Made by a program: the position numbers and the translations under genes. The notes beneath the pieces were generated by a model. The model was given only the letters and a program-made list of their open reading frames with translations, was not told the origin of the DNA and searched no databases. This document shows positions 28,227 to 44,204 of a DNA stretch of 50,731 bases, piece after piece. Origin of the DNA: a phage. The stretch is taken from the sequence record PZ445412.1; one strand, written 5' to 3'. Position 1 is the first letter of the stretch. Every line of letters begins with the position of its first letter.

Positions 28227-30200
28227 ATGATTCCTAACATTGAAAAGCAGATTGCAGATCTTGGAGAGGAAAGAATTAAGGCAATCCAGAAGCGTTTCAC
28301 GGTTGGTGAGATTGTCCCGTATGAATACCAATGCGTTGCTTACGCTGAAATTGCAAAGCGCTTGAGCAAGTATGTCGATCCGTTTTTCGTTAAAGCGGCG
28401 GTATCGGCAGGTAAAACAATAATCTTTGCTATGGTTGCGGCTCAGTGTCGGAAAATGGGATTGAAAGCGTTATTTCTGGCGCGTCAATCTGAAATCGTGG
28501 ATCAGGATTCAAAAGAGATTAGCGCCTTTGGTGTTCCGAATTCCGTTTATTGCGCTGGCCTGAATACCAAAAGCGCTTATTTCCCGATTGTTGTCGGATC
28601 GGAAGGTACTGTAATTGGTGGATTGAATAAAGCGTTAGGTGATTACGTCCCACAGGTTTTAGGTATAGATGAATGTCATCAAGTCAACTGGAATGATATT
28701 GTTGAAGCCGAGGAAAACGGCGAAAGCATAGAGCAAATGATGACGCCGAAAGGTGAACCAGTTGAAGGGCATCCATTGCTGATTGGTTCAGGACGCGCAC
28801 AATACACCATTATCATTGCAGAAATGCGCCGCCGTTGTCTTGAGACTTACGGTCATCAGTTGCGCATATTTGGAATGACCGGATCGGAATATCGCGGAAT
28901 TGAGCCGATACTTGTCGAAGATAAAAGAATTCCTGGGTTTTGGCGTGAGCAGATCACAAACATTGATACTGATTACCTGGTAAAATTTGGTTCAGTTGTT
29001 CCCACATATTTTGGCAATGTTGGTGATTTGGGTTACGACTTATCAGAATTTACGCCAGTGCATGAATTTGGCGTTGCTGATTATGACCAGAAGCAATTAA
29101 AGGCCATGAGTGACAAGATTCACCAATCAGTAACCATGACGCAGAAAATAATGCAGATGGTTCATGAGGTAATGAAAAACCGCTTATGTGCTCTTGTTAC
29201 TTGCGCTGACGAAAGGCACTGCAAAGAGGCGGCGGCGGCGCTTCCGTCTGGCACGAAATATCACATTATTACCGGAAAAACTGGAGAGAAACAGCGGCGC
29301 TTATGGCTTGAGGATGCCTATGAAGGGCGCGTGAAATACATCTTCCAGGTTCAGGCGCTAACAACTGGCGTTAACGTTCCGCCGTGGGATACTTCTGTGA
29401 TTTTGCGTAAGATCGGAAGCCTGACGCTATTAACTCAGCTTTTGGGGCGTGGTATGCGTCAATTAAAAACTTACCATAAAGAAGTATTGGGAATGCACAA
29501 AACGGATCACCTTGTTTTGGATTTTTCCGGCACGATGTTTGAAATGGGTAATTTGTATTTCGATCCTATGTTAGAGCAAGCGCAATTCCAGTTGCGTAAA
29601 TCACAGGATAAAGATCCGAAATATTGCCCGATTTGCGGCACAGAAAATTCATTCTATGCTCGCCGTTGCATTAATGAGGATGAAAACGGAAATCGTTGTG
29701 AACATTTCTGGACGTTCCAGGAGTGTGAGGATCAGATTGATGACCGCACAAAGAAAGTTATTGTAAAAGGTTGCGGCGCAAAAAATGACGTTGCTGCGCG
29801 TGTATGCCGTTGCTGTAATGTTCAGTTACGCGATCCAAATGATAACTTGTCCGGCAAGATGTACCGTAAAAACGATTGGTGCGACGTGTTAGATTTTAAT
29901 GTGACGCTGACAAAAAACCAGGCTGGCGTAATATTCTGCTACACGTTGCGTGATAGTGGCGGCGTAGAATTCAGGGCATACGAAAAATATTTCCCTGAAT
30001 CAGAACACAAGATATGCAAAACGCTTTGGACAAAGGCGGTTAGAACTCACGTTATAGATCGCCAGGCCGCAAACTTTATGATCACTTGCCGCAATGCAAT
30101 TAAGATCATGAGTTATGCGGGGCAAATATTGCCGCCAAAACGTGTTACCCATCGCAAGAACACAAAGAAAGAAGATTTGATCGCACAGAAGGAGTTTTAA
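28227..30200 (+). CDS. superfamily-2 ATP-dependent helicase with C-terminal zinc ribbons
   Basis: Walker A AVSAGKT, DExH box GIDECHQ, C-terminal CPICG...C..C and CG...CRCC pairs. Confidence 0.7.
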   Translation: MIPNIEKQIADLGEERIKAIQKRFTVGEIVPYEYQCVAYAEIAKRLSKYVDPFFVKAAVSAGKTIIFAMVAAQCRKMGLKALFLARQSEIVDQDSKEISAFGVPNSVYCAGLNTKSAYFPIVVGSEGTVIGGLNKALGDYVPQVLGIDECHQVNWNDIVEAEENGESIEQMMTPKGEPVEGHPLLIGSGRAQYTIIIAEMRRRCLETYGHQLRIFGMTGSEYRGIEPILVEDKRIPGFWREQITNIDTDYLVKFGSVVPTYFGNVGDLGYDLSEFTPVHEFGVADYDQKQLKAMSDKIHQSVTMTQKIMQMVHEVMKNRLCALVTCADERHCKEAAAALPSGTKYHIITGKTGEKQRRLWLEDAYEGRVKYIFQVQALTTGVNVPPWDTSVILRKIGSLTLLTQLLGRGMRQLKTYHKEVLGMHKTDHLVLDFSGTMFEMGNLYFDPMLEQAQFQLRKSQDKDPKYCPICGTENSFYARRCINEDENGNRCEHFWTFQECEDQIDDRTKKVIVKGCGAKNDVAARVCRCCNVQLRDPNDNLSGKMYRKNDWCDVLDFNVTLTKNQAGVIFCYTLRDSGGVEFRAYEKYFPESEHKICKTLWTKAVRTHVIDRQAANFMITCRNAIKIMSYAGQILPPKRVTHRKNTKKEDLIAQKEF

Positions 30201-30202
30201 AG

Positions 30203-30610
30203 ATGGTTAATGATAAAGGAGATTATCTGGAGTATTACGACAAATCAGATCCAGATACAAGAAAAGAAGAATCTCACCAGGTTGATTCTTACTCATGGCT
30301 TATATACGAATTCCCCATGTGGCTTGTTTGGCACACTAAAAACGAAGGGAAGAAAACCATTGGCACAGCAGTAAAAGATCAGCAAGCAGGTGTGAAAAAG
30401 GGAGTAAGCGACATTCTAATCCTGACTGGTTTTATTGGCTGCAAATATTCATTCATTGCCATTGAGCTTAAAAAAGCCAACAAGAAAGGCACAAAAGTAA
30501 GCAAGGAACAAAAGGAATTCTTACGTCGCGTTAGGGAATGCGGAGGATTTGCCGCCGTATGCTATGGTGTAGAGCAAGTAAAATTGGCTATCGCAGACGC
30601 TACAAAATAG
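30203..30610 (+). CDS. VRR-NUC domain nuclease
   Basis: GVSDILIL...IAIELKK pattern consistent with the VRR-NUC D...E.K core; follows helicase. Confidence 0.5.
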   Translation: MVNDKGDYLEYYDKSDPDTRKEESHQVDSYSWLIYEFPMWLVWHTKNEGKKTIGTAVKDQQAGVKKGVSDILILTGFIGCKYSFIAIELKKANKKGTKVSKEQKEFLRRVRECGGFAAVCYGVEQVKLAIADATK

Positions 30611-30626
30611 CACTTTTTGTTAAAAC
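30605..30626 (+). promoter_or_regulatory. conserved 22-bp box plus hairpin element
   Basis: AAATAGCACTTTTTGTTAAAAC; hairpin GGCGCA-acggaa-TGCGCC; CATAATGCAC; AGAACGAAACGGAG. Confidence 0.6.
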
Positions 30627-30681
30627 AGGCGCAACGGAATGCGCCATAATGCACCCATCAGAACGAAACGGAGAATTAACC

Positions 30682-30960
30682 ATGAAAAAGATGTTATCAG
30701 TAGTTGCTTTATCACTTGCCCTTGTCGGTTGCATGGATAAACCCAAAACATATATTTGCGGAAATGAAGCGTTTGAGGTTACAAGCGACTATATGAAAGT
30801 TGTGCAAGGCAAAAGCACAGGCGTTGTAATGGATAATATCAGCAAAAATCAATATAAGTTGTTTACGCCAATTGGAACGGCTTATTACACTGTTAACGAT
30901 AGCACCATTGATATTAAAGTTGGCGTTTATCAGCACACTCTAACTTGCGAGGTAAAATAA
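30682..30960 (+). CDS. lipoprotein (candidate Cor-like superinfection exclusion protein)
   Basis: Signal peptide with lipobox LALVGC; start MKKML at 30682 after box/hairpin element. Confidence 0.55.
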   Translation: MKKMLSVVALSLALVGCMDKPKTYICGNEAFEVTSDYMKVVQGKSTGVVMDNISKNQYKLFTPIGTAYYTVNDSTIDIKVGVYQHTLTCEVK

Positions 30961-30961
30961 A

Positions 30962-31699
30962 ATGGCTAAGGATTTTCAGGACAAAGCAACCATTGATACT
31001 TTTGAGCCGGAAATGGATTTTCATGAATTGCAACACGGCAGATATTCAGATATTGCGTTGCGTTCAGGTGGTCATTATCAGCCAGTTAGAGAAAACCCAA
31101 TGTTCAAGGTTAGCGGCAACCGTTACGCCGGAAGTAAGACACCTGATGTTGTGCGTGATTTGTGGGAAACGCCAGATGAAATTGTAGAATATTTGGCTGA
31201 ACGTTACGGCAAATACGATCTTGATGCAGCCGCAAGCGAAAACAACAAGAAATGCGATAAGTTTTACAGCAAGGAAACAAACTGCTTAAAACGTTGGTGG
31301 GGTAGCAATAAGCATGTTTGGCTCAATCCACCATACAGCAATCCAGATCCGTTTGTGTTAAAAGCAATTGAGCAGATGGAACACGGAAACCAGATTGATA
31401 TTTTACTTCCGGCTGACAACTCAACAGCATGGTTTAGCGATGCACAAAAACACGCGGCTGAAATTATCTGGATCACTGGCGAAACATGGGAAGAAGAAGG
31501 AAAACAATATTCCCGCACTGGTCGAGTATCGTTTATTTCTGGAATGACAGGTGAACCAGTTAGCGGAAACAATAAAGGAAGCGTGATTTTTATCATGCGA
31601 CAACTGAAAGAAGGTGAGCAACAACAAACTCATTATGTGCCAATTAGTGAAATTTGCCCTTCTGTTGAGAACAAACGCACAAAAGCGCGGAGTATTTAA
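30962..31699 (+). CDS. dam: DNA N6-adenine methyltransferase (phage Dam type)
   Basis: Catalytic NPPY motif (WLNPPYSNPDP) and upstream DLDAAAS motif. Confidence 0.75.
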   Translation: MAKDFQDKATIDTFEPEMDFHELQHGRYSDIALRSGGHYQPVRENPMFKVSGNRYAGSKTPDVVRDLWETPDEIVEYLAERYGKYDLDAAASENNKKCDKFYSKETNCLKRWWGSNKHVWLNPPYSNPDPFVLKAIEQMEHGNQIDILLPADNSTAWFSDAQKHAAEIIWITGETWEEEGKQYSRTGRVSFISGMTGEPVSGNNKGSVIFIMRQLKEGEQQQTHYVPISEICPSVENKRTKARSI

Positions 31700-31701
31700 A
31701 G

Positions 31702-31968
31702 ATGGAAAAGATTGAAACTATTGTTGAAAATGGCGTTGAATATCGACGCGTTGAATTAACTGAACGTGGTTTATGGTTGCTTTATCGCGCTATGGTTTGC
31801 GAAGCTATAGAGAAAGCGAAAGAAACTGAAACAGTAGGATCTGATTTGTGGATGTTCACAGGTGCGCTTGATATGAGCTTTGATGAAACAAAAGAGCTTG
31901 TATTGAGCAAGTGGGAAGAAAAGATAAATCAAGATCTCAAAGAATTTTTAGCAGATCCGAATAAATAG
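31702..31968 (+). CDS. hypothetical acidic protein
   Basis: 88 aa, Glu/Asp-rich; stop codon embedded in box element. Confidence 0.4.
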   Translation: MEKIETIVENGVEYRRVELTERGLWLLYRAMVCEAIEKAKETETVGSDLWMFTGALDMSFDETKELVLSKWEEKINQDLKEFLADPNK

Positions 31969-31985
31969 CACTTTTTGTTAAAAAT
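31963..31985 (+). promoter_or_regulatory. conserved 22-bp box plus hairpin element
   Basis: Box then hairpin TGCCCC-gcgaaagt-GGGGCA, ATAATCA, TCAACGAAAC. Confidence 0.6.
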
Positions 31986-32038
31986 GCCCCGCGAAAGTGG
32001 GGCATAATCATTTCAACGAAACACGATAGGGCTTTAAG

Positions 32039-32203
32039 ATGGAAATCAAAAACATTGAATACTTCAAAGATGCGCAATGGCTGGCAAGAGAGGCAATTTT
32101 CTTGCGTGATCGAAAAAATCCTATTGTTGTGTCACAGATACTTTGGAATGACGCTATGAAACTTCTTAAAAAGGCTTACGGTCATGAAAATAATGAGGGG
32201 TAA
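32039..32203 (+). CDS. hypothetical small protein
   Basis: 54-aa ORF after box/hairpin/TCAACGAAAC leader; not in the 60-aa ORF track. Confidence 0.35.
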   Translation: MEIKNIEYFKDAQWLAREAIFLRDRKNPIVVSQILWNDAMKLLKKAYGHENNEG

Positions 32204-32426
32204 AAAAGAAACATGGGATTTAGCTAAAAAAGGCGGTCTTGATGAAGGGATCGCAAAAATAGCGCAATATTTCGATATTAAAGACGTGTGCGTTATTGTC
32301 GGTGATGAAATGGCATATGTGGATGAAAAGCCGCGCAAGGTTCATCGCGTTCCGGCAATTCCGACAACAATTGACTATAAAGAAGTGATCAACAAAACCA
32401 AAGAGCAAAGGAAATATTACAAGTGA
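32184..32426 (+). CDS. hypothetical protein
   Basis: 80-aa ORF overlapping upstream gene end. Confidence 0.35.
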   Translation: MKIMRGKKETWDLAKKGGLDEGIAKIAQYFDIKDVCVIVGDEMAYVDEKPRKVHRVPAIPTTIDYKEVINKTKEQRKYYK

Positions 32427-32519
32427 AAACAATTAAATTCATGTTTGCTGTTGCCTTGCCGCCAATGCTGGCATGGTTTATGATGTATGCCGTTGTTATG
32501 AAATAAGAGGATTTGTGAA

Positions 32520-33635
32520 ATGAGTGCGGCAAAAATTACGGACGAACAACTTATTGCAGAAAGGGCGGCAGGTTTAAAACTGCGTGAGATTGCGGAAAAA
32601 TACGGAATGAGCTTGCGCCAGGTTGAGCACCGACACAGCAAATTGGCTAAACGTGGGGAAATATCAACAATCGGATCGCCTGGCTTTGCTGTAATTGGTG
32701 AATCACAGCTTAAACGTGCAAATGGTGAGGTTGTAATGACCTGGACTAAAACGCACAAAGACAAAGCACAATTAGAGGCAATCATGCAAGCGGCTATGGC
32801 TGCATTTTCGGAAGAAGTGCCGCGCGTCGAACCGCAACCGGAAAAGATTGTTGACTACTCGCAAACGCTGGCGTTATATCCGATCTTTGATATCCATATT
32901 GGCGCAATGGCTCATAAGCATGAAAGCGGTGAGAATTACGACACGGCAACGGCGGAAAACGTCATGAATGAGTTTTTCGATTATGCAGTTGATAAAGCGC
33001 CGAATAGCGAAAAGGCTGTATTGCTGATTGGTGGTGATATGATTCACAGTGACGGTCTGGAGGCTGTAACACCTGCAAGCGGTCACGTTTTGGATCAAGA
33101 TAGCCGTTACGCAAAACTTGTTTATGTTGCTATCCGCGCCACGCGTCGAGCAGTAAGCAGAATGCTGGAAAAACATAAAGAGGTTGAATTGCAGATCATT
33201 GAAGGTAATCACGACCAATCAGGAATGATCTGGCTACGTGCTGCAATGGCGGCGGCGTATGAGAATGAGCCACGCGTAAAGGTTGATGTTTCTCCGCGTG
33301 TCGTGCATCACACTCAATATGGTAAAACATTCCTGGCTTATCATCATGGTCACACTGTACGCAAACCAGAAACGCTTTTAATGATGTGTGCAGCGGATTG
33401 GCGGGAAGATTTCGGAAACTCCAATTCAATGTATGCTCATGTAGGGCATTGGCATCATCAGACCGTCACAGAAACTAGCCTGGGCATTGTTGAGGTTCAT
33501 AGCACTATGGCGGCTAAAGATGCTTATGCGGCGCGTGGAGGTTGGCGTTCACGCCGTCGAGCGGCGGTAATTATCTATGATAAGGAATATGGCGAGATAG
33601 GGCGCTTCATGTTCTACCCTGAAATGATTGCATAA
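32520..33635 (+). CDS. metallophosphoesterase with N-terminal HTH-like domain
   Basis: Calcineurin-like motifs GDMIHSD, EGNHDQ, HHGH, GHWHH; N-terminal LKLREIAEKYGMSLRQV HTH-like. Confidence 0.55.
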   Translation: MSAAKITDEQLIAERAAGLKLREIAEKYGMSLRQVEHRHSKLAKRGEISTIGSPGFAVIGESQLKRANGEVVMTWTKTHKDKAQLEAIMQAAMAAFSEEVPRVEPQPEKIVDYSQTLALYPIFDIHIGAMAHKHESGENYDTATAENVMNEFFDYAVDKAPNSEKAVLLIGGDMIHSDGLEAVTPASGHVLDQDSRYAKLVYVAIRATRRAVSRMLEKHKEVELQIIEGNHDQSGMIWLRAAMAAAYENEPRVKVDVSPRVVHHTQYGKTFLAYHHGHTVRKPETLLMMCAADWREDFGNSNSMYAHVGHWHHQTVTETSLGIVEVHSTMAAKDAYAARGGWRSRRRAAVIIYDKEYGEIGRFMFYPEMIA

Positions 33636-33746
33636 TTAAATTATCACCTAAAAAGGCTGGCTAAATGCTGGCCTTTTTTTGTTTTTGTCGTTAACATAAT
33701 CAGACTATTTTTGATATTGACTTTTTAATTTTTAAAGGATCTGGTT

Positions 33747-33962
33747 ATGCGTGAATTTATTAACTTTGCAACTTATTCAAGCGGTGGCGCTACCTTCTCA
33801 GGCGCTGCAAGTGGTCAATTACTGTTGGCGGCTCTAACATTCATATTCTTTGTTATTTTCGGCGCTATTGGCTTGTGGTTAAGGTGGCGTGACAGCAAGG
33901 CGATCCGAGAAGCGTTAGAGTGTGGAGATCTTAAAACCGCTCTTAAAATTAACCAAAAATAG
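33747..33962 (+). CDS. holin (possible pinholin)
   Basis: 71 aa, hydrophobic TM segment LLLAALTFIFFVIFGAIGLWL, charged C-terminus; directly upstream of endolysin. Confidence 0.55.
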   Translation: MREFINFATYSSGGATFSGAASGQLLLAALTFIFFVIFGAIGLWLRWRDSKAIREALECGDLKTALKINQK

Positions 33963-33974
33963 GGAGTGAATTTA

Positions 33975-34469
33975 ATGGCTATTAAAAAGACAATAGCCGC
34001 TACCATAACGGGCGCGGCTCTAATGATGGCATCGCCCTTGATTGAAGAAATTGAGGGCGTGAGGTATAAGCCTTACAAGGATATTGCAGGAATCTGGACT
34101 GTATGCCACGGCATCACCGGAAAGGATGTGATATTAGGAAAGGAATATACCAGGCGAGAATGTGACGCGCTACTTGCAAAGCATATGAAAGTTGCGGCTG
34201 ACGCTGTTGATAAAGCGGTTAAGGTTGATATTCCTATTTCTATGCGAGCGGCCTTGTACTCATTCACATTCAACGCCGGAACGGGGGCATTCAGGAAATC
34301 AACCATGTTGAAGAAGATCAACAATGGTGATCTGTATGGTGGTTGTGGCGAGCTTTGGAACTGGACATATTACCGGAACCCGAAAACGGGCAAAAAGGAA
34401 AAATCAAAGGGATTGAAGAATCGCCGCGCTGTTGAATATAAATATTGTGTAATGGATCTGAATAAATGA
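33975..34469 (+). CDS. endolysin, lysozyme type with putative SAR N-terminus
   Basis: [23 protein letters not shown] closely matches the catalytic region of P21-type SAR lysozymes; Gly/Ala-rich weak TM at N-terminus. Confidence 0.75.
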
Positions 34470-34855
34470 AAAGAAAATTACTGGCTATTATGATGTGCAT
34501 TGCTCTTTCTGGTTGTTCAGCTTCAAGCGTGTTACCTGGTCTGATTGGTAGCAAGCCTGATATAACGGCACAGGCTGGAGCGGAGAATGTGAAACAGACT
34601 GTTGGTGTAACCGCAAAGCAGGATACATCAAGCAAGCAGAAAACCACATTCAAAGAATCGGCAGTTGGCGAGGTTGACACGTCTAATAAAAAGCAGGTGA
34701 GCACTTCAAGCATTAAGGCAGAAAACATCACAGCGGAAAGAATAGAGATCCGCAATAATGATGGTCTTAATGTTCCGGCAATCGCAATGGGTATATTGAT
34801 GTTTATTGCGGGTATGTTGGCGGGTTGGTCACTGAAACGAAATAAGGCGGCATAA
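34466..34855 (+). CDS. unimolecular spanin (u-spanin)
   Basis: Lipobox LSGC at N-terminus plus C-terminal TM helix; last gene of lysis cassette. Confidence 0.65.
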
Positions 34856-34871
34856 GCCGCCTTTATTATTA
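34841..34871. terminator. bidirectional terminator between lysis cassette and leftward operon
   Basis: GGCGGC-ataa-GCCGCC flanked by A-run and T-run. Confidence 0.6.
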
Positions 34872-35093
34872 AAAAATGTTGTTCATTAAGTCTTGGAAAG
34901 TATTTTCGCTATAATCCCTTTCCTCAATAATGTGAGCACCTTTCTTTTTTATGTTCCACAACATTTCTTCATATTCACTTCTGTTGATCCCAAAAGTTCT
35001 ACCATCATCAACAAAAGCAGTACCTTTATCGTTGAATGTATCAAATGTGACGTTAACAACGCGAGTGGTTTTGATAGTATATTTCAGAGTCAT
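34869..35093 (-). CDS. hypothetical protein
   Basis: 74 aa; preceded by box, hairpin and TCGAAACGAAAC leader; last gene of leftward operon. Confidence 0.45.
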   Translation of the reverse strand: MTLKYTIKTTRVVNVTFDTFNDKGTAFVDDGRTFGINRSEYEEMLWNIKKKGAHIIEERDYSENTFQDLMNNIF

Positions 35094-35152
35094 GGTTATT
35101 CCCCTTTGTTCGTTTCGTTTCGATGAAACAAATATACCCGATGCGAGATCGG

Positions 35153-35176
35153 GTTTTTTGACAAAAAGTGCTATTC
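35153..35176 (-). promoter_or_regulatory. conserved box plus hairpin element (minus orientation)
   Basis: Reverse complement GAATAGCACTTTTTGTCAAAAAAC; hairpin CCCGAT-ctcgc-ATCGGG; TATATT; TCGAAACGAAACGAAC. Confidence 0.6.
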
Positions 35177-35368
35177 AAAGCGTCTGACGTGAATCAGCAA
35201 TTCACCATCATTGTTTGTCAGTTGGTGCTCTTGATCCTCAAACGCTCGCATATCTGAATACAGGAGAAGCATTAAGGCATAAACAAAATCATCATGCGGA
35301 ATTTGCATTGCTGAACTTTCTTTCAAAATAAGATCTATCAAATGTTGGCTTGCTGAATAATTCTTCAT
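35171..35368 (-). CDS. hypothetical small protein (start uncertain; may begin at 35308)
   Basis: Stop codon TAG is embedded in box 35153-35176 as for other real genes; overlaps 35292-35684 in another frame. Confidence 0.3.
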   Translation of the reverse strand: MKNYSASQHLIDLILKESSAMQIPHDDFVYALMLLLYSDMRAFEDQEHQLTNNDGELLIHVRRFE

Positions 35369-35684
35369 CGCTCATTTTCTCAATGTTCATCATCTCCCAC
35401 ACATAACGATTGGAATCACCTTCCAGGCTATGCAACTCAAAATTAAACGGCCTTTTCATCTTGTTTTTGCACCAGTACACGCAATGAACGCCGTCAAGAT
35501 ATCCATAACCCATCATTCGCGCTATAAACTCTTTGCTTGAGCTTGATGCGAAATAGCGGGGCGTTACCCCCGCATTTTTGGCGAGCCTTTCACATTCACG
35601 GTGTCGGAATATAAATCTTGCTAACTCTTGGCGGTTGAATTTCTCGCGAGACTCGCAAAAGCGATACAGATCTAATAAGAACAT
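35292..35684 (-). CDS. hypothetical protein
   Basis: 130-aa ORF immediately downstream of the 526-aa gene. Confidence 0.45.
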   Translation of the reverse strand: MFLLDLYRFCESREKFNRQELARFIFRHRECERLAKNAGVTPRYFASSSSKEFIARMMGYGYLDGVHCVYWCKNKMKRPFNFELHSLEGDSNRYVWEMMNIEKMSDEELFSKPTFDRSYFERKFSNANSA

Positions 35685-35686
35685 GA

Positions 35687-37267
35687 TTACCCCATTAACG
35701 CCGGATTGACATAAACAAATTTACCCACGCTGCAAACATAATTCTTTTCTTCAAGCATTGGCAATAATTGTTCCTCAATTCGTTTCATCACGCCTGATTG
35801 ACCTGTAAACGGCTTAACCTTACGAGCACTTTCATAGATCGCTCTTGCATTGGTAACGCCTTTATTTTGACGTGAGATCTTAATGATGATTTCAATTAAC
35901 TTGCTCATTTCGGCATCATCGCCAGCGTGACCGGAAGCATTCGCGGCGTTGATATATGTTTTGCTTAATTCGCTGAACATCACCAAAGCCTCTTGCATTG
36001 TCTCAACTTCAATTTCTCGCGACTTTTGCGGCGTACCGTTTGGATTAAACCAATTGCGGATCGTGTGCAATACTGACGCAATGCGGATCACTTGCTTATC
36101 CATTTTACCCAAAGCACCACGCAACATTGTATGTGAATATTTCCCGCCGTCTGCTAAATCTGGCTCTAATTGCTGTCGAGCAATATTAAGAACACGCATT
36201 GCAGAACGTGACGGCTTCAATACAACATTTTGTTCAGTCATGATGTTATGAATCAACTGAAAATATTGCGCCTTTAATTCTTTATCAACTGGCGTGTAAT
36301 CAAGATCACCATTTTCATCAATAAATACACGCTCGCCTAACATTGTTTTTTCACGTACAAGCAAGAAACGTTCACTAACACCGATACCCCGCGCCCCTGC
36401 ATCCATGATCCCTTTTATCGTTTCATCCTGGGCAATTACGCTCATGCAGCCCAACGCAACAAAACTCATATTGTTTTCAGAGTTTGCGCGAGCTATTGAA
36501 ACGTGTCCGGCGTCCCATGCTTTTAGAACCAATTCGCTGTTAGTCTTGCGATCACTATTAGCGTAAGTCAATCCGAGTAAGCTGTTGATGCTTGTTGCTT
36601 CATCGGAAATGACAGCAAAGTTACCCTGGCGATTGTTGATCTTTGCTAACCCTTCCGGCGTGGTGTCTGATACCGGAAAAACGATATCGCACATTTTTTC
36701 TAACTTTTCCTCTAATTCCTCCTTTTCCTCAAACAACGCCGCTAACTCAGTGCCGGAACGTTCAGCTTTCAATTCCTTTTCAACGCCTTTTAATTTAGCT
36801 GCGATCTTCTTTCGCTCTTTCTTGCGTTGTTCGTTTATTCGCTCAACTTCACAGACCATTGGCGCAATAGCCAGGCTGTTGATTGCTGACTTACCAGTTG
36901 ACGGCGGCTGACTGGTTACAACATAAAGCGCCGTTGGTTGTTCAGTGCCGTGGTACTCAACCTGGAAACGTCCAACCATAGCGGCGGAAACGCAACCAAT
37001 GAAATGCATATAGGCTGATGATTCAGGAAATTGAACAGATTGCGCAATGCTACGTGACAGTTTACCCACAACATCAACATCATTACCCAAAGAGATCACA
37101 GGATAGCGGTCATTAGCGCCGTTGATATCCTTTACAGGTTCCCAAAAGCTGGACGATTGGCGGTAGCCGTTCGACTGAATAGCAACGCGAAGCGGCGATG
37201 TTCCCTGCGATTCTGCAATGGCTATAACTTGTTGAGGTGTCAATTTGTTGGTGTCAAAGTCAAACAT
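35687..37267 (-). CDS. DUF3987-like P-loop protein (primase-associated helicase-like)
   Basis: 526 aa, Walker-A-like TSQPPSTGKSA; family assignment from memory of P4-alpha C-terminal-like proteins. Confidence 0.4.
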   Translation of the reverse strand: MFDFDTNKLTPQQVIAIAESQGTSPLRVAIQSNGYRQSSSFWEPVKDINGANDRYPVISLGNDVDVVGKLSRSIAQSVQFPESSAYMHFIGCVSAAMVGRFQVEYHGTEQPTALYVVTSQPPSTGKSAINSLAIAPMVCEVERINEQRKKERKKIAAKLKGVEKELKAERSGTELAALFEEKEELEEKLEKMCDIVFPVSDTTPEGLAKINNRQGNFAVISDEATSINSLLGLTYANSDRKTNSELVLKAWDAGHVSIARANSENNMSFVALGCMSVIAQDETIKGIMDAGARGIGVSERFLLVREKTMLGERVFIDENGDLDYTPVDKELKAQYFQLIHNIMTEQNVVLKPSRSAMRVLNIARQQLEPDLADGGKYSHTMLRGALGKMDKQVIRIASVLHTIRNWFNPNGTPQKSREIEVETMQEALVMFSELSKTYINAANASGHAGDDAEMSKLIEIIIKISRQNKGVTNARAIYESARKVKPFTGQSGVMKRIEEQLLPMLEEKNYVCSVGKFVYVNPALMG

Positions 37268-37318
37268 CTAAAAATCTCCTTCTTGTTGCCGCTAATTATA
37301 ACGGCAACATTCTACAGC

Positions 37319-37340
37319 CTTTTAGCAATTCGTGCTATTT
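37319..37340 (-). promoter_or_regulatory. conserved box (GAATTG type) plus hairpin element
   Basis: Reverse complement AAATAGCACGAATTGCTAAAAG; hairpin TGTTGCCG-ttataatta-CGGCAACA with TATAAT in the loop. Confidence 0.6.
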
Positions 37341-37583
37341 GATCGGCTCAACCCTGGCTAATAACTTTCCATCTATAATGCTATGACATTCAAGAGTTTT
37401 AGGATCGAATGCAAGCGAACGATGGAACGTATGACCAATCAGAAAATATGAATGCTTATCCCTGATGCGATAGACCGTTTCACCTTCCTTTAATGAAGAT
37501 ATCTCACTGAAAACAACCTTGTAACGGTATTTTTGCATGGCCTCAGAACGGTGAGGAATGTAATCTTTTTCCGGTAAACTCAT
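37335..37583 (-). CDS. hypothetical protein
   Basis: 82-aa ORF, start overlapping upstream gene stop. Confidence 0.4.
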   Translation of the reverse strand: MSLPEKDYIPHRSEAMQKYRYKVVFSEISSLKEGETVYRIRDKHSYFLIGHTFHRSLAFDPKTLECHSIIDGKLLARVEPIK

Positions 37584-37942
37584 GAGTATTTGGCCTCAAA
37601 CAGATAAGCACCGCCAGCGGCTGAAAATCCAACTTCTTCCCGATACAGCGTGAAACGATCGCCGTTTTCGTCGAACACGTATCCAGCAACAGCACCTAAC
37701 ACGCGCCCTTGTTCGATCTGATAACGCTTATCGGCCTTGAAAGTTTTCTTGATCTGCATGGAGTGATTTACCCATTTGCAAAGGATTGTTTTTGTCTTGA
37801 CTTGACGGAAAGTCATTCCGGTTAAATTGGCGTGAATCCATTTCCCATCTAACTTAACGAAAGTATCATCATTTTCATCAACGCGTGCCTTGTATAGACG
37901 GTTATCAGATCCGATAAGTTTAATTGATTTGAATTTAGCCAT
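37580..37942 (-). CDS. hypothetical protein
   Basis: Start MAKFKSIK at 37942 with RBS AGGAGA; six-frame ORF extension (to 38035) runs through the box. Confidence 0.45.
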   Translation of the reverse strand: MAKFKSIKLIGSDNRLYKARVDENDDTFVKLDGKWIHANLTGMTFRQVKTKTILCKWVNHSMQIKKTFKADKRYQIEQGRVLGAVAGYVFDENGDRFTLYREEVGFSAAGGAYLFEAKYS

Positions 37943-37997
37943 TTGATTTATCTCCTTTTGTTTCGACGAGTGCATTATGCCGGATTCTAGATCCGGC

Positions 37998-38019
37998 GTT
38001 TTAACAAAAAGTGCTATTT
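37998..38019 (-). promoter_or_regulatory. conserved 22-bp box plus hairpin element
   Basis: Reverse complement AAATAGCACTTTTTGTTAAAAC; hairpin GCCGGAT-ctaga-ATCCGGC; CATAATGCAC; TCGAAAC. Confidence 0.6.
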
Positions 38020-38709
38020 CTGATTTGCCAGGCATACAGCAAGCGCAAAGCCGCGCGGAGTGAGTGAGCGGATCAGCTTTGTGCGCTTAGACTTGCCGCC
38101 GAGCTTTTGCCAGCCTGGATTGTTGTTCCCTGTTGGCAATACTGCGTTTGTATCCGGCATCACAAAGCCGTTACCCGTCCAAAGACAAGTTTTTTTGGTG
38201 TACGCATCGCGAGCGGGAATGATTTCAGGAAAGTGAGGATGTTTATCATCTTCCGGCAATAGACCGCCAAACGCGCAAGGATGAAATATAAAATCAGGTT
38301 GCCGCCACATCGACGACAGGACGCTAACAGGATTCTCGATCATGTATGGCACATTGAACCAATCCGCAATTTCAGCCGCAATCTTGCATGTTGAAACGGC
38401 CTTATCCTGGAATAGCGGATCACGTTCACGCTTTGCGGCAAAGTGACGCGAACCGCTAACAGCTAAATCAGTGCATGGAGGAAATGCAATCACAAAATCA
38501 GGCTTTCCGTAAACCTCATTGCGAGCCTTAAAGCTGAAATCTGAATCAATCCAAACGTTTACATACTCAATGTTGGGATGACTTACGCGCACTGAATGGT
38601 AATCACCATGATCGGCATCATCATAATTGAAACAGATTACTTTGTGACCACGTTCAGCCCACGGCAACGCATCATAACCGGAACCGCTAAAAAGAGAAAA
38701 AACTAACAT
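38014..38709 (-). CDS. putative C5-cytosine DNA methyltransferase-like protein (short)
   Basis: LFSGSG (motif I-like), FPPC with catalytic-type Cys, IENP (ENV-like); start MLVFSLF at 38709 with RBS AAGGAT; only about 231 aa. Confidence 0.35.
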   Translation of the reverse strand: MLVFSLFSGSGYDALPWAERGHKVICFNYDDADHGDYHSVRVSHPNIEYVNVWIDSDFSFKARNEVYGKPDFVIAFPPCTDLAVSGSRHFAAKRERDPLFQDKAVSTCKIAAEIADWFNVPYMIENPVSVLSSMWRQPDFIFHPCAFGGLLPEDDKHPHFPEIIPARDAYTKKTCLWTGNGFVMPDTNAVLPTGNNNPGWQKLGGKSKRTKLIRSLTPRGFALAVCLANQK

Positions 38710-38816
38710 ACTTAAATCCTTTGTGTATGGCCTTGTAAGGCGTTTTGTTTGGTGGTGTCGCAACTGTATTGGTTGCGACCTGAAATCGCGACACGATGCG
38801 AAACAGGCCGCTAATT

Positions 38817-39053
38817 TTAGAATGGGAAACAGCGCTTGCAAGATGGATCGAAGTTACAACCGCAATCATTGATTATTGCATTAGGATCAGCAAGCATCAC
38901 GCTACTTTCTTGATCCATATCCATAGCGCCTAATGCGTCATCAAGCGTTATTTCAAGATAGGCAACTTTGAGCGCCCACTCTTTGTTAAGTCCAGCCGCC
39001 TCCGCTTCATGTAGGCGAGCAAAGAAAGCATCTTGAACCATGATTAACTCCAT
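38817..39053 (-). CDS. hypothetical protein
   Basis: 78-aa ORF in leftward operon. Confidence 0.4.
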   Translation of the reverse strand: MELIMVQDAFFARLHEAEAAGLNKEWALKVAYLEITLDDALGAMDMDQESSVMLADPNAIINDCGCNFDPSCKRCFPF

Positions 39054-39265
39054 TTCTCGATCAGGAAAGAAAGATCATCAACAAGCGCGTAAGCATCGCT
39101 TTCAGTCATGCGTCGGATTTTGCCTCCTGGATGTTCGCCCACAGCGTAACCAGTTTTTACGCGGGTAATCGTTAACTGATGGAATCCAGAAGCGCGATCC
39201 ATTTTCAAAACTACTTTCCCGTGAGCTTTGACAATGTTCATGATGGATTCAGTTTTCAGTTTCAT
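39044..39265 (-). CDS. hypothetical protein
   Basis: 73 aa; preceded by GAATTG-type box 39320-39343. Confidence 0.45.
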   Translation of the reverse strand: MKLKTESIMNIVKAHGKVVLKMDRASGFHQLTITRVKTGYAVGEHPGGKIRRMTESDAYALVDDLSFLIEKWS

Positions 39266-39319
39266 TTTTGATTCTCCATTTTGTTTGTGTGAAAGTATGA
39301 TACCAATCAGAGCGATATC

Positions 39320-39343
39320 GTTTTTAGCAATTCGTGCTATTTA
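39320..39343 (-). promoter_or_regulatory. conserved box (GAATTG type)
   Basis: Reverse complement AAATAGCACGAATTGCTAAAAAC; followed by TGGTATCATACT. Confidence 0.5.
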
Positions 39344-39487
39344 CGGCGATAAACGGATATCCTGTTAAATCTGCGGGTCTGTATTTCTTGTGCGGCCTCC
39401 ACCAATTAACATCTTTTGACAGCATGAAAACCTTGTTGCCGACAATTTGATAAAAGCAACCATTTTCCACATTCTTAAACAGATTTT

Positions 39488-39721
39488 TCACAACCTAACC
39501 TCATGATATTCGATGAATTCTTGCACATATGAGCATTCTCGCGGCGACTCCTGGCCTTTTAGAACTTCACAACCACCATTGAACAGATAGCAGTGCTGGC
39601 AAAGGTTGCCGCCCACGTTTTCCTCAGCGATCTGAATTCCGGTACACAAACCGCCACCAAACCTATGAGGAAAATCGTAAGCCTGGCAGCGGCACGTTGC
39701 TTGATGCCGCTTACGTTTCAT
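39488..39721 (-). CDS. hypothetical Cys-rich (zinc-binding-like) protein
   Basis: 77 aa with about 9 Cys (CRC...C...CxxC...C...C). Confidence 0.4.
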   Translation of the reverse strand: MKRKRHQATCRCQAYDFPHRFGGGLCTGIQIAEENVGGNLCQHCYLFNGGCEVLKGQESPRECSYVQEFIEYHEVRL

Positions 39722-39990
39722 TAGATGTTCTCGCTAATAAACTGGATAACCTGGCGAAGATGTTTTTCATCCTTAATTGTCGCTGGTAATTCTTCCTTAA
39801 CTTCTTGGCTTAGATAGATATTACCTTTCCATGTAAAACTACCATCATCATTAATGTAATAAGAGCAAAGCCATTCGCAATCATTATCAGCCTCCCAAAT
39901 GCACAATACATCCATATCATTAAATTGCTCAACGCTTAACTCAATGCCACGTTTGCCAGCGAAGTTAGTAGTTGTTTTTGATACCATCAT
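39721..39990 (-). CDS. hypothetical protein
   Basis: 89 aa; preceded by box 40045-40067 and TCGAAACGAACCGGAG leader. Confidence 0.45.
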   Translation of the reverse strand: MMVSKTTTNFAGKRGIELSVEQFNDMDVLCIWEADNDCEWLCSYYINDDGSFTWKGNIYLSQEVKEELPATIKDEKHLRQVIQFISENI

Positions 39991-40044
39991 TTTTAGATTC
40001 TCCGGTTCGTTTCGATGAATGTATTATGCCAAAACAAACCGGAT

Positions 40045-40067
40045 CGCTTTTAACAAAAAGTGCTATT
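40045..40067 (-). promoter_or_regulatory. conserved 22-bp box element
   Basis: Box then GGCATAATACA and TCATCGAAACGAACCGGAG leader. Confidence 0.55.
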
Positions 40068-40261
40068 TAGTCAGATTCCATTACGATGACCGGATCAAGA
40101 CGTTCAAGCACGACTTTGAAATCTGCGTAAAAAGTCGGGCGGCGTTTTGTCAATTCCTCATAGGTATCAGTTGCCAGGCAAGCGTGATCACCTTCATAGC
40201 ACACAACGCGTTTACCGTTGGCGCGGCTGATTGCAACCACGCGGTAAGTGTTCTTGCTCAT
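40067..40261 (-). CDS. hypothetical protein
   Basis: 64-aa ORF, coupled to neighbours. Confidence 0.4.
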   Translation of the reverse strand: MSKNTYRVVAISRANGKRVVCYEGDHACLATDTYEELTKRRPTFYADFKVVLERLDPVIVMESD

Positions 40262-40491
40262 GAAATCACCTCAATTTCGCAAAGATGATCGACGCCAGGC
40301 GCATAAACCCCGCTTTTATCATTAGTGACGCAGAGGCAAAGAGACAATCCGCGATTATCAACGATGTGCAGCCAATCCATGCGGGTATAAAGAATTTCGT
40401 ATTCGCGCTCACTGTCAAAAGTCCAAACGCCAATGAATTCACCAAGCGCCTTAACTCTTACCTTCTTGCCTACAAATTTTTGATCGTTCAT
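40258..40491 (-). CDS. hypothetical protein
   Basis: 77-aa ORF, ATGA overlap with upstream gene. Confidence 0.4.
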   Translation of the reverse strand: MNDQKFVGKKVRVKALGEFIGVWTFDSEREYEILYTRMDWLHIVDNRGLSLCLCVTNDKSGVYAPGVDHLCEIEVIS

Positions 40492-40713
40492 TTATTCATC
40501 CTCAACAGTTTCAAACACGGTATTAAATGCCAGAAGTTTAAATTTCTTGCCAGGCTCAACAACCTGAATATTCCAGGTAATTCCGCCGTGATATGCGACC
40601 ATATCATCAATATCGACGGTGATTTGTGCGCCCTTCTTGAATAAACCTTTCTCATGAGTAGCGTCACGTTCAGTAACTACAGTTTCGAATTGCGTTTGTT
40701 GTTCAAAGTTCAT
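40492..40713 (-). CDS. hypothetical protein
   Basis: 73 aa; preceded by box 40769-40790, hairpin and CAACCAATCAGGAG leader. Confidence 0.45.
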   Translation of the reverse strand: MNFEQQTQFETVVTERDATHEKGLFKKGAQITVDIDDMVAYHGGITWNIQVVEPGKKFKLLAFNTVFETVEDE

Positions 40714-40768
40714 CGTTGATTCTCCTGATTGGTTGATGCGTGTATTATGCCGGAATTAGATCCGGCAC

Positions 40769-40790
40769 GTTTAACAAAAAGTGCTATTTC
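40769..40790 (-). promoter_or_regulatory. conserved 22-bp box plus hairpin element
   Basis: Box; hairpin GTGCCGGA-tctaat-TCCGGCAC; ATAATACACGCATCAACCAATCAGGAG. Confidence 0.6.
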
Positions 40791-40933
40791 AAAACACAAA
40801 ATGCCCTGGCGCTAAAAGTATTATCTTTGACTATTTGCCGCGCCTCCAGGCAACGAGCTTTGCTGTGAAATTCTTGCGTTGTTACCGCCTCACCTTGCAT
40901 TGTTTGAAGCGCAATAATTAGCACGTAAATCAT
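40784..40933 (-). CDS. hypothetical small protein (49 aa)
   Basis: ATG overlaps stop of upstream gene (ATGA); its TAG stop is embedded in box 40769-40790; below the 60-aa track cutoff. Confidence 0.35.
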   Translation of the reverse strand: MIYVLIIALQTMQGEAVTTQEFHSKARCLEARQIVKDNTFSARAFCVLK

Positions 40934-41169
40934 TTTTCCTTTCCTTCATTGTATGTAAGGTTAATGTGAATTGATGCACTTCCGACAATTTCAGCGGTTC
41001 CAATCTCAACCATGTATATCAATTCATGGCGGCTAAATGATGTGTACGCAGGGAAGCCGTCAACAATGCGCATAACCGGAAGTTCACTGTATTTTGTGTT
41101 AGGCACTGCATATTCATTGCCAGTGCTCTTAATGCGTATAAGAATCATTTTATTCTCCCACGATCCCAA
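40930..41169 (-). CDS. hypothetical protein
   Basis: 79-aa ORF. Confidence 0.4.
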   Translation of the reverse strand: MGSWENKMILIRIKSTGNEYAVPNTKYSELPVMRIVDGFPAYTSFSRHELIYMVEIGTAEIVGSASIHINLTYNEGKEK

Positions 41170-41434
41170 AGATAGAAATTATTGAGTTTGTACGACTCCG
41201 GCGATACTTGCGCATAACAAACGTTAAGTTTTCGCCTTGCTGATGACCTAGCGTGATCGGCATTTCAGAACCATCACCGAATTCATCACCAATCTTTTTT
41301 GGCTTTTCTCGCCACGCGCAAATAAAACCAAATTTATCACGCGTGATATAGCGGTATATGTTAGGAAGGGGCAATTTCAACCCCTCGAAATCAACCTGTT
41401 GCGTGTAACTGCGAAAATTAAGCGTGGAATTCAT
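41150..41434 (-). CDS. hypothetical protein
   Basis: 94-aa ORF. Confidence 0.4.
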   Translation of the reverse strand: MNSTLNFRSYTQQVDFEGLKLPLPNIYRYITRDKFGFICAWREKPKKIGDEFGDGSEMPITLGHQQGENLTFVMRKYRRSRTNSIISIFGIVGE

Positions 41435-41573
41435 ACATCACCTCACCAAATTCACCAACGATTTGAGCCTTATAAAAACCGCCTTTACTTGCAATGTTAT
41501 ATGCTGCGTGCATTGGCATTTCGAATTGTTCAGCTTTGCTGTTTTCGTGCTCCCAGGTAATCAGTACGACCAT
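41418..41573 (-). CDS. hypothetical small protein, first gene of leftward operon
   Basis: Start MVVLITWEHE at 41573 with RBS GAGGAT after box 41629-41650. Confidence 0.4.
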   Translation of the reverse strand: MVVLITWEHENSKAEQFEMPMHAAYNIASKGGFYKAQIVGEFGEVMYEFHA

Positions 41574-41628
41574 TTTGTAATCCTCAATTCGTTTCGATGA
41601 AGTAATCATAGCAATTCGTGACTGATTG

Positions 41629-41650
41629 GTTTTAACAAAAAGTGCTATTC
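41629..41650 (-). promoter_or_regulatory. conserved 22-bp box, first element of leftward operon
   Basis: Box followed by CCAATCAG, CACGAATTGCTA and TCATCGAAACGAATTGAGG. Confidence 0.55.
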
Positions 41651-41656
41651 ATGCGA

Positions 41657-41684
41657 TAGACCGATTGGTCTAGACCGTTTGGTC
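41657..41684. promoter_or_regulatory. two abutting 14-bp palindromes (operator-like)
   Basis: AGACCGATTGGTCT and AGACCGTTTGGTCT just upstream of the first leftward box. Confidence 0.55.
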
Positions 41685-41721
41685 TAATGAACACATCGTT
41701 TTCTGTATCGAACGGATTCAC

Positions 41722-41815
41722 GATCACGTTATGCGATCACAATATGATCATGTTGATGATTGATGTGTGAGTTGATTTGATTTTATTTGATGGGATTTGA
41801 TTAGATTTGAGTAGC
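41722..41815. repeat. GATC cluster plus 10-bp-phased ATTTGA iterons (candidate origin or protein-binding array)
   Basis: Three GATC within 30 bp; ATTTGA at 41775, 41785, 41795, 41805 with exact 10-bp spacing. Confidence 0.6.
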
Positions 41816-42248
41816 TAGTGAGCAGAAATAATCACACCTTGCCGATCAGAGAAAACTTTTCCCGCAAAACATCACTCCAGGCTAGCTCTTGTCTCAATCT
41901 GTTTTCTGCTGTCTCAATTCGCACATTCCGCAAAAAAGCGAAACGGTTCACAAACAGAAAGAACAAATAAATCACCTATATAATAATAATAAAATCAACT
42001 AGTTAGTTATATATATCTATTTATGGTTATATATCTGTCTTAGTTGTTCTGTCTATATAGGCATACCCTGGTATATTTCAATTTATATATTGATATTGGT
42101 ATCTATGGGTATATATATCTATATATGCTCGATTTCCGGCGCAAACTGGTGAACAGGCGAAAAAGACAAGCGTTTTCATTGCTTTGCGTTGAAATTTGTC
42201 TCAAATCGCATATTGAAATGTATTAAGAACCAAAAGAACTTGACACGT

Positions 42249-42304: not shown

Positions 42305-42760
42305 ATGGAAGAATTCGACTACATCCCAATGAAAGATTTCTGCAACGGCCTACGCGAAAAGGCAAAGAGCATTGCAGAAGGTGAACCACTAGTGATCCCG
42401 TTGGCTATGCTGGTTCAAAAACTGCATCCAGAAGATGCGAGAAAGGTTACAGCCAGCTACATAAGAACCATCCTTGTGCGCACACCTGAAATCAAAGAGA
42501 AAGGAAGCGTGAGCATCAAGAAGTGCAATTGCCCGGATCGCGGTGAATACCTTGAAGTGACGCTCAACGAAAACAAAAAGCGTCGAGTGATCACAAGTGA
42601 CGACCTTCCAGCAATCAAGGAGGCGGCTGTAAGTAGCGCTTTCGAGAAGTTTATGCACATTCAGCCTGACGTTACAGATCTTGAAGGTGATCAGTTAGTT
42701 GGTGCTACTGTAGCGTTGCGCCGCATGAAAAATCTGATTAAGTCAATGATTAAGGGGTGA
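42305..42760 (+). CDS. hypothetical protein, first gene of rightward early block
   Basis: 151 aa; RBS CAGGAGGA; TTGACA promoter-like hexamer upstream at 42249. Confidence 0.5.
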   Translation: MEEFDYIPMKDFCNGLREKAKSIAEGEPLVIPLAMLVQKLHPEDARKVTASYIRTILVRTPEIKEKGSVSIKKCNCPDRGEYLEVTLNENKKRRVITSDDLPAIKEAAVSSAFEKFMHIQPDVTDLEGDQLVGATVALRRMKNLIKSMIKG

Positions 42761-43889: not shown

Positions 43890-44204
43890 ATGGAATTAGC
43901 ACGTAACGCGATTTATGGTTTACACCTCAAAGGCGGCAAAGGTTCAACTTATGCGCACCTGTTTCATGTTAACGATCGCGGCCAGGTTGATATTGCAATG
44001 TATGTTGACCAACTGGTTAAAGGTTGTGAGTCCGACAAGTTCAGACCGGACCTGATTGAATACGATCACACATACAGTCATGACCACTGGTTAGATGGTT
44101 ATAAGTTTACAATGCTGGATACCCATGTTATTGACACAGGCAAGTTAACTAATCGAGACTATAAGCGCATGGCTCGAAAGGTAGTTAAACTTAAAGCGCA
44201 ATAG
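43890..44204 (+). CDS. hypothetical protein
   Basis: 104 aa; preceded by GAATTG-type box 43813-43833. Confidence 0.45.
   Translation: MELARNAIYGLHLKGGKGSTYAHLFHVNDRGQVDIAMYVDQLVKGCESDKFRPDLIEYDHTYSHDHWLDGYKFTMLDTHVIDTGKLTNRDYKRMARKVVKLKAQ

Follow-up and report, generated by a model that had tools for sequence, protein, structure and literature searches.

Two genes of a coliphage, one for a Dam methyltransferase and one for a much shorter protein with C5-cytosine methyltransferase motifs, raise the question of whether both products are working enzymes and what a phage would gain by carrying them. The window, by which we mean the whole stretch of DNA analyzed here (record PZ445412.1; 50,731 nucleotides), matched Escherichia phage DanielBernoulli (Bas08, MZ501059.1) at 100% when positions 30000 to 42000 were compared by megablast. 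It is the Bas08 record rotated by 536 bp (window coordinate = record coordinate - 536). Bas08 is a T1-like coliphage of the Drexlerviridae (Tempevirinae, Tlsvirus) with a complete genome of 50,731 bp. GenBank labels bas08_0037 (window 30962-31699, plus strand) a "Dam-like N6-adenine methyltransferase" and bas08_0051 (window 38014-38709, minus strand) a "Dcm-like C5 cytosine methyltransferase," and Tls, GJL01, Stevie, and other related records have the same annotation pair. The BASEL paper describes the Dam/Dcm pair as typical of Drexlerviridae (PMC8594841), while a Druantia preprint using Bas08 makes no statement on its methylases. The Bas08 pair is thus already known, being publicly annotated and having close orthologues with published activity data. 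With both genes annotated and laboratory tests done on close relatives, the identification is correct but ordinary, and it adds little to published orthologue data that include the short Dcm as a trigger of retron Ec86.

The adenine methyltransferase gene and its catalytic motif are placed as follows.

30962..31699, plus strand: T1-type phage Dam (DNA N6-adenine methyltransferase), 245 aa, bas08_0037, assigned by PF05869, TIGR01712, PHROG 111, and identity to T1 Dam
31325..31336, plus strand: NPPY catalytic motif of Dam, residues 122 to 125, from the translation and its conservation in orthologues

The protein exceeded the cutoffs of Pfam PF05869 (E = 1.1e-62; 211.1 bits, cutoff 28.1) and of the NCBIfam equivalog TIGR01712, "phage N-6-adenine-methyltransferase" (191.7 bits, cutoff 97.05), and matched PHROG 111 at E = 1.3e-90. 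Each residue of its (D/N)PPY motif (N122, P123, P124, and Y125) is at least 90% conserved among 10 Dam orthologues. Relatives were found by tblastn in 1838 phage records, 933W-type Stx phages among them, and the KarlJaspers Dam is 67% identical; a PDB sequence search gave no meaningful match. T1 Dam (ST20), the founding member of PF05869/TIGR01712, is 64% identical over its full length, a stretch that takes in about 55 N-terminal residues lying outside the Pfam domain, and both proteins have NPPY. The gene order helicase, small ORF, dam is also identical in T1 and Bas08. Judged by its sequence, Bas08 Dam is a member of the T1 Dam family, with every testable feature of that family present, and the original prediction of a Dam at this open reading frame, made from NPPY, is borne out. 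Among the papers that our literature search covered, none was usable for T1 Dam biochemistry or T1-like phage methylomes. T1 Dam methylates GATC (1980s-90s literature), and GATC is the presumed m6A target of Bas08 Dam as well.

The second gene lies on the opposite strand.

38014..38709, minus strand: probable compact C5-cytosine DNA methyltransferase ("Dcm-like"), 231 aa, bas08_0051
38717..38722, minus strand: Shine-Dalgarno-like AAAGGA, 7 nt upstream of the dcm ATG, read from the sequence
38677..38691, minus strand: motif I FSGSG (AdoMet-binding loop), residues 7 to 11; G9, S10, and G11 invariant; aligns to motif I of M.HaeIII and DNMT3B
38473..38484, minus strand: motif IV FPPC, residues 76 to 79, with the catalytic Cys79; P78 and C79 invariant; C79 aligns with C82 of the phage K42 enzyme
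38329..38340, minus strand: motif VI IENP, residues 124 to 127, with Glu125; E125, N126, and P127 invariant; E125 aligns with K42 E128
38191..38196, minus strand: K172-K173, at the motif VIII basic-residue position; aligns with K175/K176 of K42 Dcm

The translation has FSGSG, then FPPC, then IENP, the order expected of a C5-methyltransferase, as had been predicted. The motif residues (G9, S10, G11, P78, C79, E125, N126, and P127) do not vary among 42 homologues with identities of 57 to 87%, so the motifs are not chance matches. A TTG start giving 275 aa (38014-38841) is mechanically possible, but the ATG matches the GenBank coding sequence and the lengths of the homologues. The protein belongs over its full length to PHROG 757, "DNA methyltransferase" (E = 3.7e-87, residues 1 to 230). 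Against PF00145 it scored 15.2 bits, below the cutoff of 22, over profile positions 3 to 93 of 324; a few close homologues carry a precomputed match to this profile. The short protein had no NCBIfam match, and PDB sequence matches were marginal (E = 0.31 to M.HaeIII, and E = 0.13 to DNMT3B when the family profile was used). As sequence-only comparison was marginal, structure prediction was needed to settle the fold. The family comprises 5371 clusters at 90% identity and, at 50% clustering, 1153 representatives that are nearly all 210 to 260 aa long. Since the family is uniformly small, the 231-aa size is a conserved trait and not a truncation. Members occur in 1526 phage records, from Drexlerviridae, Dhillonvirus, rV5-like, and other phages. 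The genes adjoining the short dcm in Bas08 encode small hypothetical proteins.

An AlphaFold2 model built with the 42 homologues (pLDDT 91.7, pTM 0.90) has the seven-stranded class I methyltransferase fold. Foldseek agrees with a C5-methyltransferase catalytic-domain fold, and BFVD holds the same fold in other phage "cytosine methylases." The two-domain architecture of M.HhaI and M.HaeIII, in which a recognition domain sits between motifs VIII and IX, is not found in the short protein, and 179 to 180 of its residues align structurally to these enzymes of 327 to 328 aa. Strand 174-179 is separated from the C-terminal helices by no more than some 28 residues (180-207), the region modeled with least confidence (pLDDT about 75), so that the protein lacks a separate target-recognition domain. 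The model thereby agrees with the earlier judgment that some 231 aa are too few for a standard recognition domain, and it depicts the protein as essentially a catalytic Rossmann domain alone. A split two-subunit methylase with a partner is unlikely, as the protein extends from motif I as far as the C-terminal helix and expression of K42 Dcm alone was reportedly sufficient. Membership in PHROG 757, the predicted fold, and the motifs, together with methylation demonstrated on relatives, support a real compact C5-methyltransferase rather than a decoy.

The most informative relative is the Dcm of KarlJaspers (Bas06), which is 67% identical to the Bas08 short protein over its full length (E = 3e-119). 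Its place in the leftward block of early genes is the same, it has 236 aa (711 bp) against 231 aa, and its residues C82, E128, and K175/K176 align to Bas08 C79, E125, and K172/K173. The two phages differ in genus (Hanrivervirus and Tlsvirus), and one third of the residues differ, loop 180-207 included. Phage K42 is a strain 95.4% identical to KarlJaspers Bas06, and the lesions in all four of its Ec86 escapers fell within the 711-bp dcm or just upstream of it, two of them a point mutation 9 bp upstream of the gene's start codon (10.1101/2023.08.16.553469). K42 Dcm expressed alone was toxic only when Ec86 was present. Liquid chromatography coupled to mass spectrometry (LC-MS) found high 5-methylcytosine (5mC) in Ec86 msDNA with wild-type K42 Dcm and not with a C82A/E128A/K175A/K176A mutant, in which the predicted substrate-binding residues K175 and K176 were changed together with C82 and E128 (10.1101/2023.08.16.553469). 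Specificity for CCWGG was assumed from the name of the enzyme and supported by mutation of CCTGG in the msDNA, which abolished Ec86 defense (10.1101/2023.08.16.553469); this mutation could also disturb contacts between msDNA and effector. In dcm+ MG1655 with empty vector, msDNA 5mC was low and Ec86 was untriggered, unlike with the phage enzyme (10.1101/2023.08.16.553469). Since host Dcm left the msDNA low in 5mC, the phage enzyme differs from it in level, substrate form, or site.

A second relative, Pantoea phage vB_PagS_AAS23 (Drexlerviridae), infects a different host genus and has the same gene pair, gp34 (Dam) and gp52 (cytosine methyltransferase), the latter 58.5% identical to the Bas08 short protein. 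Its virion DNA was reported to be Dam and Dcm methylated on the basis of a restriction panel that included EcoRII and MboI (PMC8004638), digests that do not separate phage from host methylation. Methylation-sensitive digestion of virion DNA, which the original prediction had proposed as a check, has in this sense already been done on a relative.

If the two enzymes protect the phage, their target sites should be treated differently from other restriction sites. We compared site counts in the Bas08 genome with Markov expectation.

TCCGGA: 0 observed, 30.5 expected
GGCGCC: 0 observed, 18.5 expected
GCGCGC: 0 observed, 17.6 expected
GGATCC: 0 observed, 16.5 expected
AGGCCT: 0 observed, 13.8 expected
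AAGCTT: 1 observed, 12.9 expected
CCSGG: 1 observed, 19.3 expected
GGWCC: 1 observed, 15.7 expected
GATC: 290 observed, 260 expected (O/E 1.12)
CCWGG: 117 observed, 96 expected

Many palindromes have been purged; GATC and CCWGG rank with the most enriched. Cleavage of the BamHI type is not known to be blocked by Dam methylation, and the absence of GGATCC despite abundant GATC fits this. The count of 117 CCWGG against a single CCSGG argues for protection specific to the W centre. On one conjectural reading, pressure came from enterobacterial CCNGG-cutting enzymes, which methylated CCWGG would resist, leaving CCSGG alone to be purged. Bas08 sites split cleanly into presumably methylated and eliminated ones, a division that could help predict which restriction systems the phage survives. 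EcoRI and EcoRV sites (28 and 22) are not avoided, which counts against self-protection.

A comparison across relatives links CCWGG to the state of dcm. Taking Dam as the anchor, we cut 20-kb loci from IMG/VR contigs and recorded for each the state of dcm and the number of sites, so that each genome is represented by 20 kb. CCWGG O/E was 0.79 to 1.32 in all 64 loci with an intact dcm, and likewise in 4 more in which dcm is cut by the locus edge or probably intact. In only four loci was CCWGG nearly eliminated, with 1 site against 13 to 28 expected. Two of these, SRT8 and vB_EcoS_IME347, lack dcm and were both isolated on E. coli BL21. The other two have a degraded dcm: that of L032 (taken as Citrobacter phage HCF1) carries an insertion of 43 aa along with a stop codon and fragments that are duplicated, and that of L031 is truncated at the C terminus. 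Purging thus occurred in 4 of 8 genomes with dcm absent or broken and in 0 of 68 others (Fisher p = 5e-5, ignoring shared ancestry, with about two independent lineages). T1, L052, and L085 are without dcm, yet their CCWGG sites are not purged. Automatic calling had given 7 "aberrant" dcm copies, but three (L056, L086, and L091) were merely cut by the locus edge and one (L038) is probably intact. The really disrupted copies are only those of L031, L032, and L092 (taken as IME18, isolated on BL21(DE3)), the last being split over two reading frames. E. coli B strains generally lack host Dcm. For this reason, and because BL21(DE3) is described as carrying the native retron Ec86 operon (10.1101/2023.08.16.553469), the pattern of disrupted or absent dcm fits the published idea of dcm as a liability in BL21-type hosts. 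Together these loci suggest that, within a single phage family, CCWGG is dealt with by methylation or, as an alternative strategy, by purging, and they offer a simple, testable case of a counter-defense gene turned liability.

The explanation that we hold to be very probable is that Bas08 carries two active orphan methylases whose main role is self-protection. Neither of these solitary ("orphan") DNA methyltransferases would have an endonuclease as partner; the T1-type Dam would put an N6-methyl group on the adenine of GATC, and the 231-aa C5-methyltransferase would most likely methylate CCWGG. Acting on replicating phage DNA, both enzymes would leave the progeny fully methylated whatever the Dam/Dcm status of the host. 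GATC and CCWGG would thereby be protected from restriction enzymes blocked by these marks, with other restriction sites dealt with by purging from the genome. The cytosine methylase would carry a cost because its activity is what retron Ec86 senses, aborting the infection. Homology, fold, motif conservation, and site statistics come from our own analysis, and activity was demonstrated by others on relatives; for Bas08, we infer which sites are targeted and that the marks counter restriction. The explanation is least secure in its assignment of CCWGG as the target and in taking anti-restriction to be the function under selection. Self-modification against restriction, as originally proposed, fits the site statistics of Bas08 and its relatives and the AAS23 digests, but the BASEL authors found no simple pattern tying Dam/Dcm genes to restriction resistance (PMC8594841).

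The original prediction had also related the methylases to a group of three GATC sites in the window.

41722..41749, no strand: three GATC (Dam target) sites at 41722, 41735, and 41746, in a divergent intergenic region, from the sequence

The sites are real and conserved, but the link to the methylases is weak. Bas08 has one GATC per 175 bp (290 in 50.7 kb), and three sites lay as close together or closer in 90% of random placements and in 80% of Markov-3 simulated genomes, so we rejected the view that the cluster is statistically unusual. In 6 Tlsvirus phages the 12 GATC bases do not vary, and one of these phages is Brooksby, in which about 10 neighboring columns differ (hypergeometric p about 0.01, for a stretch chosen after the fact). 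By position, this intergenic region is the counterpart of the T1 genome terminus. In Tls, 20 bp separate the counterpart of the third GATC from the end of the record downstream of it, and in T1 two GATC sites end 20 bp before the right end. The equivalent intergenic region of KarlJaspers has no GATC. When the intergenic region was scanned for sigma-70 promoters, it yielded fewer sites than shuffled sequence did. The triple as a Dam-sensitive packaging or regulatory element is a lead and not a finding.

These sites bear on a different account of the pair, in which the methylases serve mainly inside the phage: Dam might govern packaging, replication, or early transcription, or methylation might allow MutH/mismatch repair to be evaded, and the GATC triple would be the cis element. 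Cleavage at P1 pac, which is controlled by Dam methylation of GATC-containing hexamers, offers a precedent, and the invariance of the triple in six genomes even where neighboring bases change, its place at the equivalent of the T1 terminus, and the lack of a simple gene-resistance link in BASEL all agree with such a role. Yet the density of the triple is at chance level, KarlJaspers does without GATC there, and record ends are often arbitrary. An internal role also leaves unexplained why GATC and CCWGG alone escape genome-wide palindrome purging and why CCWGG is purged only where dcm is missing. We regard it as unlikely to be the main role, although it could coexist with self-protection.

Two further alternatives concern the short protein itself. 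It might be active on a target other than CCWGG: another site or a shorter one, in the way that DNMT3 reads CpG, or preferably hairpin or single-stranded DNA. The stretch of some 28 residues between motif VIII and the C-terminal helices, best structural matches to DNMT3B/3A, the lack of similarity to E. coli Dcm, and the contrast in MG1655 between host Dcm and a phage enzyme that raised msDNA 5mC and triggered Ec86 would all accord with this. Against it, the relatives in which CCWGG is purged are all ones that lack an intact dcm; the near absence of CCSGG and GGWCC beside abundant CCWGG points to protection at a W centre rather than at CCNGG or a 2- to 3-bp site; AAS23 DNA, tested with a panel that included EcoRII, was reported as Dcm methylated; and loss of CCTGG from the msDNA abolished Ec86 defense. 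A different target is accordingly quite improbable. The original prediction had left three options for this gene, a minimal methyltransferase, a different nucleotide-modifying enzyme, and an inactive decoy. The first is favored by the fold, the conserved catalytic residues, and the 67% identical Bas06 orthologue, whereas a catalytically dead protein (a decoy or a DNA-binding protein) or one that transfers a non-methyl group finds little in its favor. All catalytic motif residues are invariant across the family, the K42 counterpart of that orthologue made 5-methylcytosine by LC-MS, and the quadruple mutation abolished its effect. The match to 8yf3 reflects the shared fold, with other ordinary C5-methyltransferases scoring similarly. 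We consider a dead or differently acting protein extremely unlikely and retain two active methylases with a mainly self-protective role.

Among known systems, T1 shares its type of Dam with Bas08 but has no dcm, and its GATC sites are mildly under-represented (O/E 0.78), against the slight excess in Bas08. The catalytic domains of DNMT3A and DNMT3B, eukaryotic enzymes of de novo C5 methylation, resemble the short protein most closely in structure. They differ in having only 13 to 20% sequence identity to it and a length of about 280 aa, and in reading CpG as oligomers with DNMT3L, so the likeness is one of fold and not of family membership. Of the recognition regions known, those of DNMT3 enzymes are the smallest. 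The short-enzyme family is a natural minimal C5-methyltransferase, and how it reads DNA is a residual point of value. As a tentative possibility, the Bas08 enzyme may be among the smallest sequence-specific C5-methyltransferases, reading the 5-bp CCWGG without a recognition domain in a way not yet described, for instance as a dimer like that of DNMT3 spanning the palindrome or with its catalytic loop and the 28-residue loop acting together, while T1-like lineages switch between methylating and purging CCWGG according to the presence in their hosts of a retron that senses methylation, such as Ec86.

E. coli K-12 Dcm and M.EcoRII probably have the same target site and chemistry as the short enzyme, hence the name "Dcm-like." E. 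coli Dcm is otherwise a different protein, with 472 aa, a full recognition domain, and an overlapping vsr gene. We rejected orthology, as BLASTP gave E = 1.8 and hhalign, which aligned no more than 25 columns near motif IV, a probability of 1.1%. We take the short protein to be a probable functional analogue of Dcm, and "Dcm-like" denotes presumed function, not ancestry.

We examined CCWGG content alongside the state of the dcm gene among the T1-like loci, each a 20-kb stretch anchored on Dam. CCWGG was nearly eliminated only in L025 (SRT8), L028 (IME347), L031, and L032 (putative Citrobacter phage HCF1), which have 1 site where 13 to 28 are expected. The dcm gene is absent from two of these four loci and present as a degraded copy in the other two. 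SRT8 and IME347 were both isolated on E. coli BL21. Another relative, the putative phage vB_EcoS_IME18 (L092; host BL21(DE3)), carries a dcm gene that appears to be broken:

L092:19481-20160, dcm homologue split across two reading frames

Residues 2 to 190 lie in one frame and residues 202 to 226 in another, which probably reflects either a frameshift pseudogene or a sequencing error. Counts of CCWGG sites showed no purging in the L092 locus.

Across the whole window, many restriction-type palindromes are strongly avoided, based on observed versus expected counts. TCCGGA (30.5 sites expected), GGCGCC (18.5), GCGCGC (17.6), GGATCC (16.5), AGGCCT (13.8), GCCGGC (10.5), and GCATGC (8.8) do not occur at all, while a single site remains for AAGCTT (12.9), CCSGG (19.3; site at 42532), and GGWCC (15.7; site at 44048). 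Site counts over the same sequence showed no avoidance of GATC, CCWGG, GAATTC, or GATATC. Among the T1-like loci examined, GGWCC is absent or nearly so (0 to 1 sites, with 5 to 13 expected) in most of L006 to L093, independent of dcm status. CCSGG is avoided only in some clades, namely the Tls-like phages, L029, and L037, and in T1 itself site counts indicated avoidance of neither GGWCC nor CCSGG.

Both methyltransferase genes are accompanied by a small open reading frame (ORF):

30682-30960, + strand, bas08_0036, directly upstream of dam
38687-38794, - strand, bas08_0052, annotated 35-aa ORF

The N terminus of bas08_0036, MKKMLSVVALSLALVGC, resembles the signal peptide of a lipoprotein, lipobox included. 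A single base separates the end of its stop codon from the dam ATG, suggesting translational coupling of the two genes. The bas08_0052 ORF and the beginning of dcm share 23 nt, and a TTG-started, 275-aa extension of dcm in a mechanical ORF list spans the bas08_0052 stretch.

The divergent intergenic region that holds three GATC sites (41722-41749) contains further elements:

41659-41684, GACCGATTGGTC and GACCGTTTGGTC, a pair of adjoining palindromes that are almost identical
41750-41810, short-repeat run rich in TGAT/GATT, TTGATGATTGATGTGTGAGTTGATTTGATT..., directly 3' of the GATC triple

The palindromes are unchanged in 6 Tlsvirus genomes and look like putative operator sites for some DNA-binding protein. 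The repeat run is mostly kept among Tlsvirus phages. No GATC was found in the equivalent intergenic region of KarlJaspers. In the stretch 41722-41769 of the window, the conserved GATC triple is followed after 20 bp by the point at which the Tls record ends. One possibility is that the GATC-triple region serves in packaging or regulation as an element that responds to Dam methylation. In T1 (L005 48803-48836), two GATC sites end 20 bp short of the right genome end and are followed by TGATG/GTGATT repeats similar to those of the window. The T1 genome junction bears a tract resembling the 41750-41810 run.
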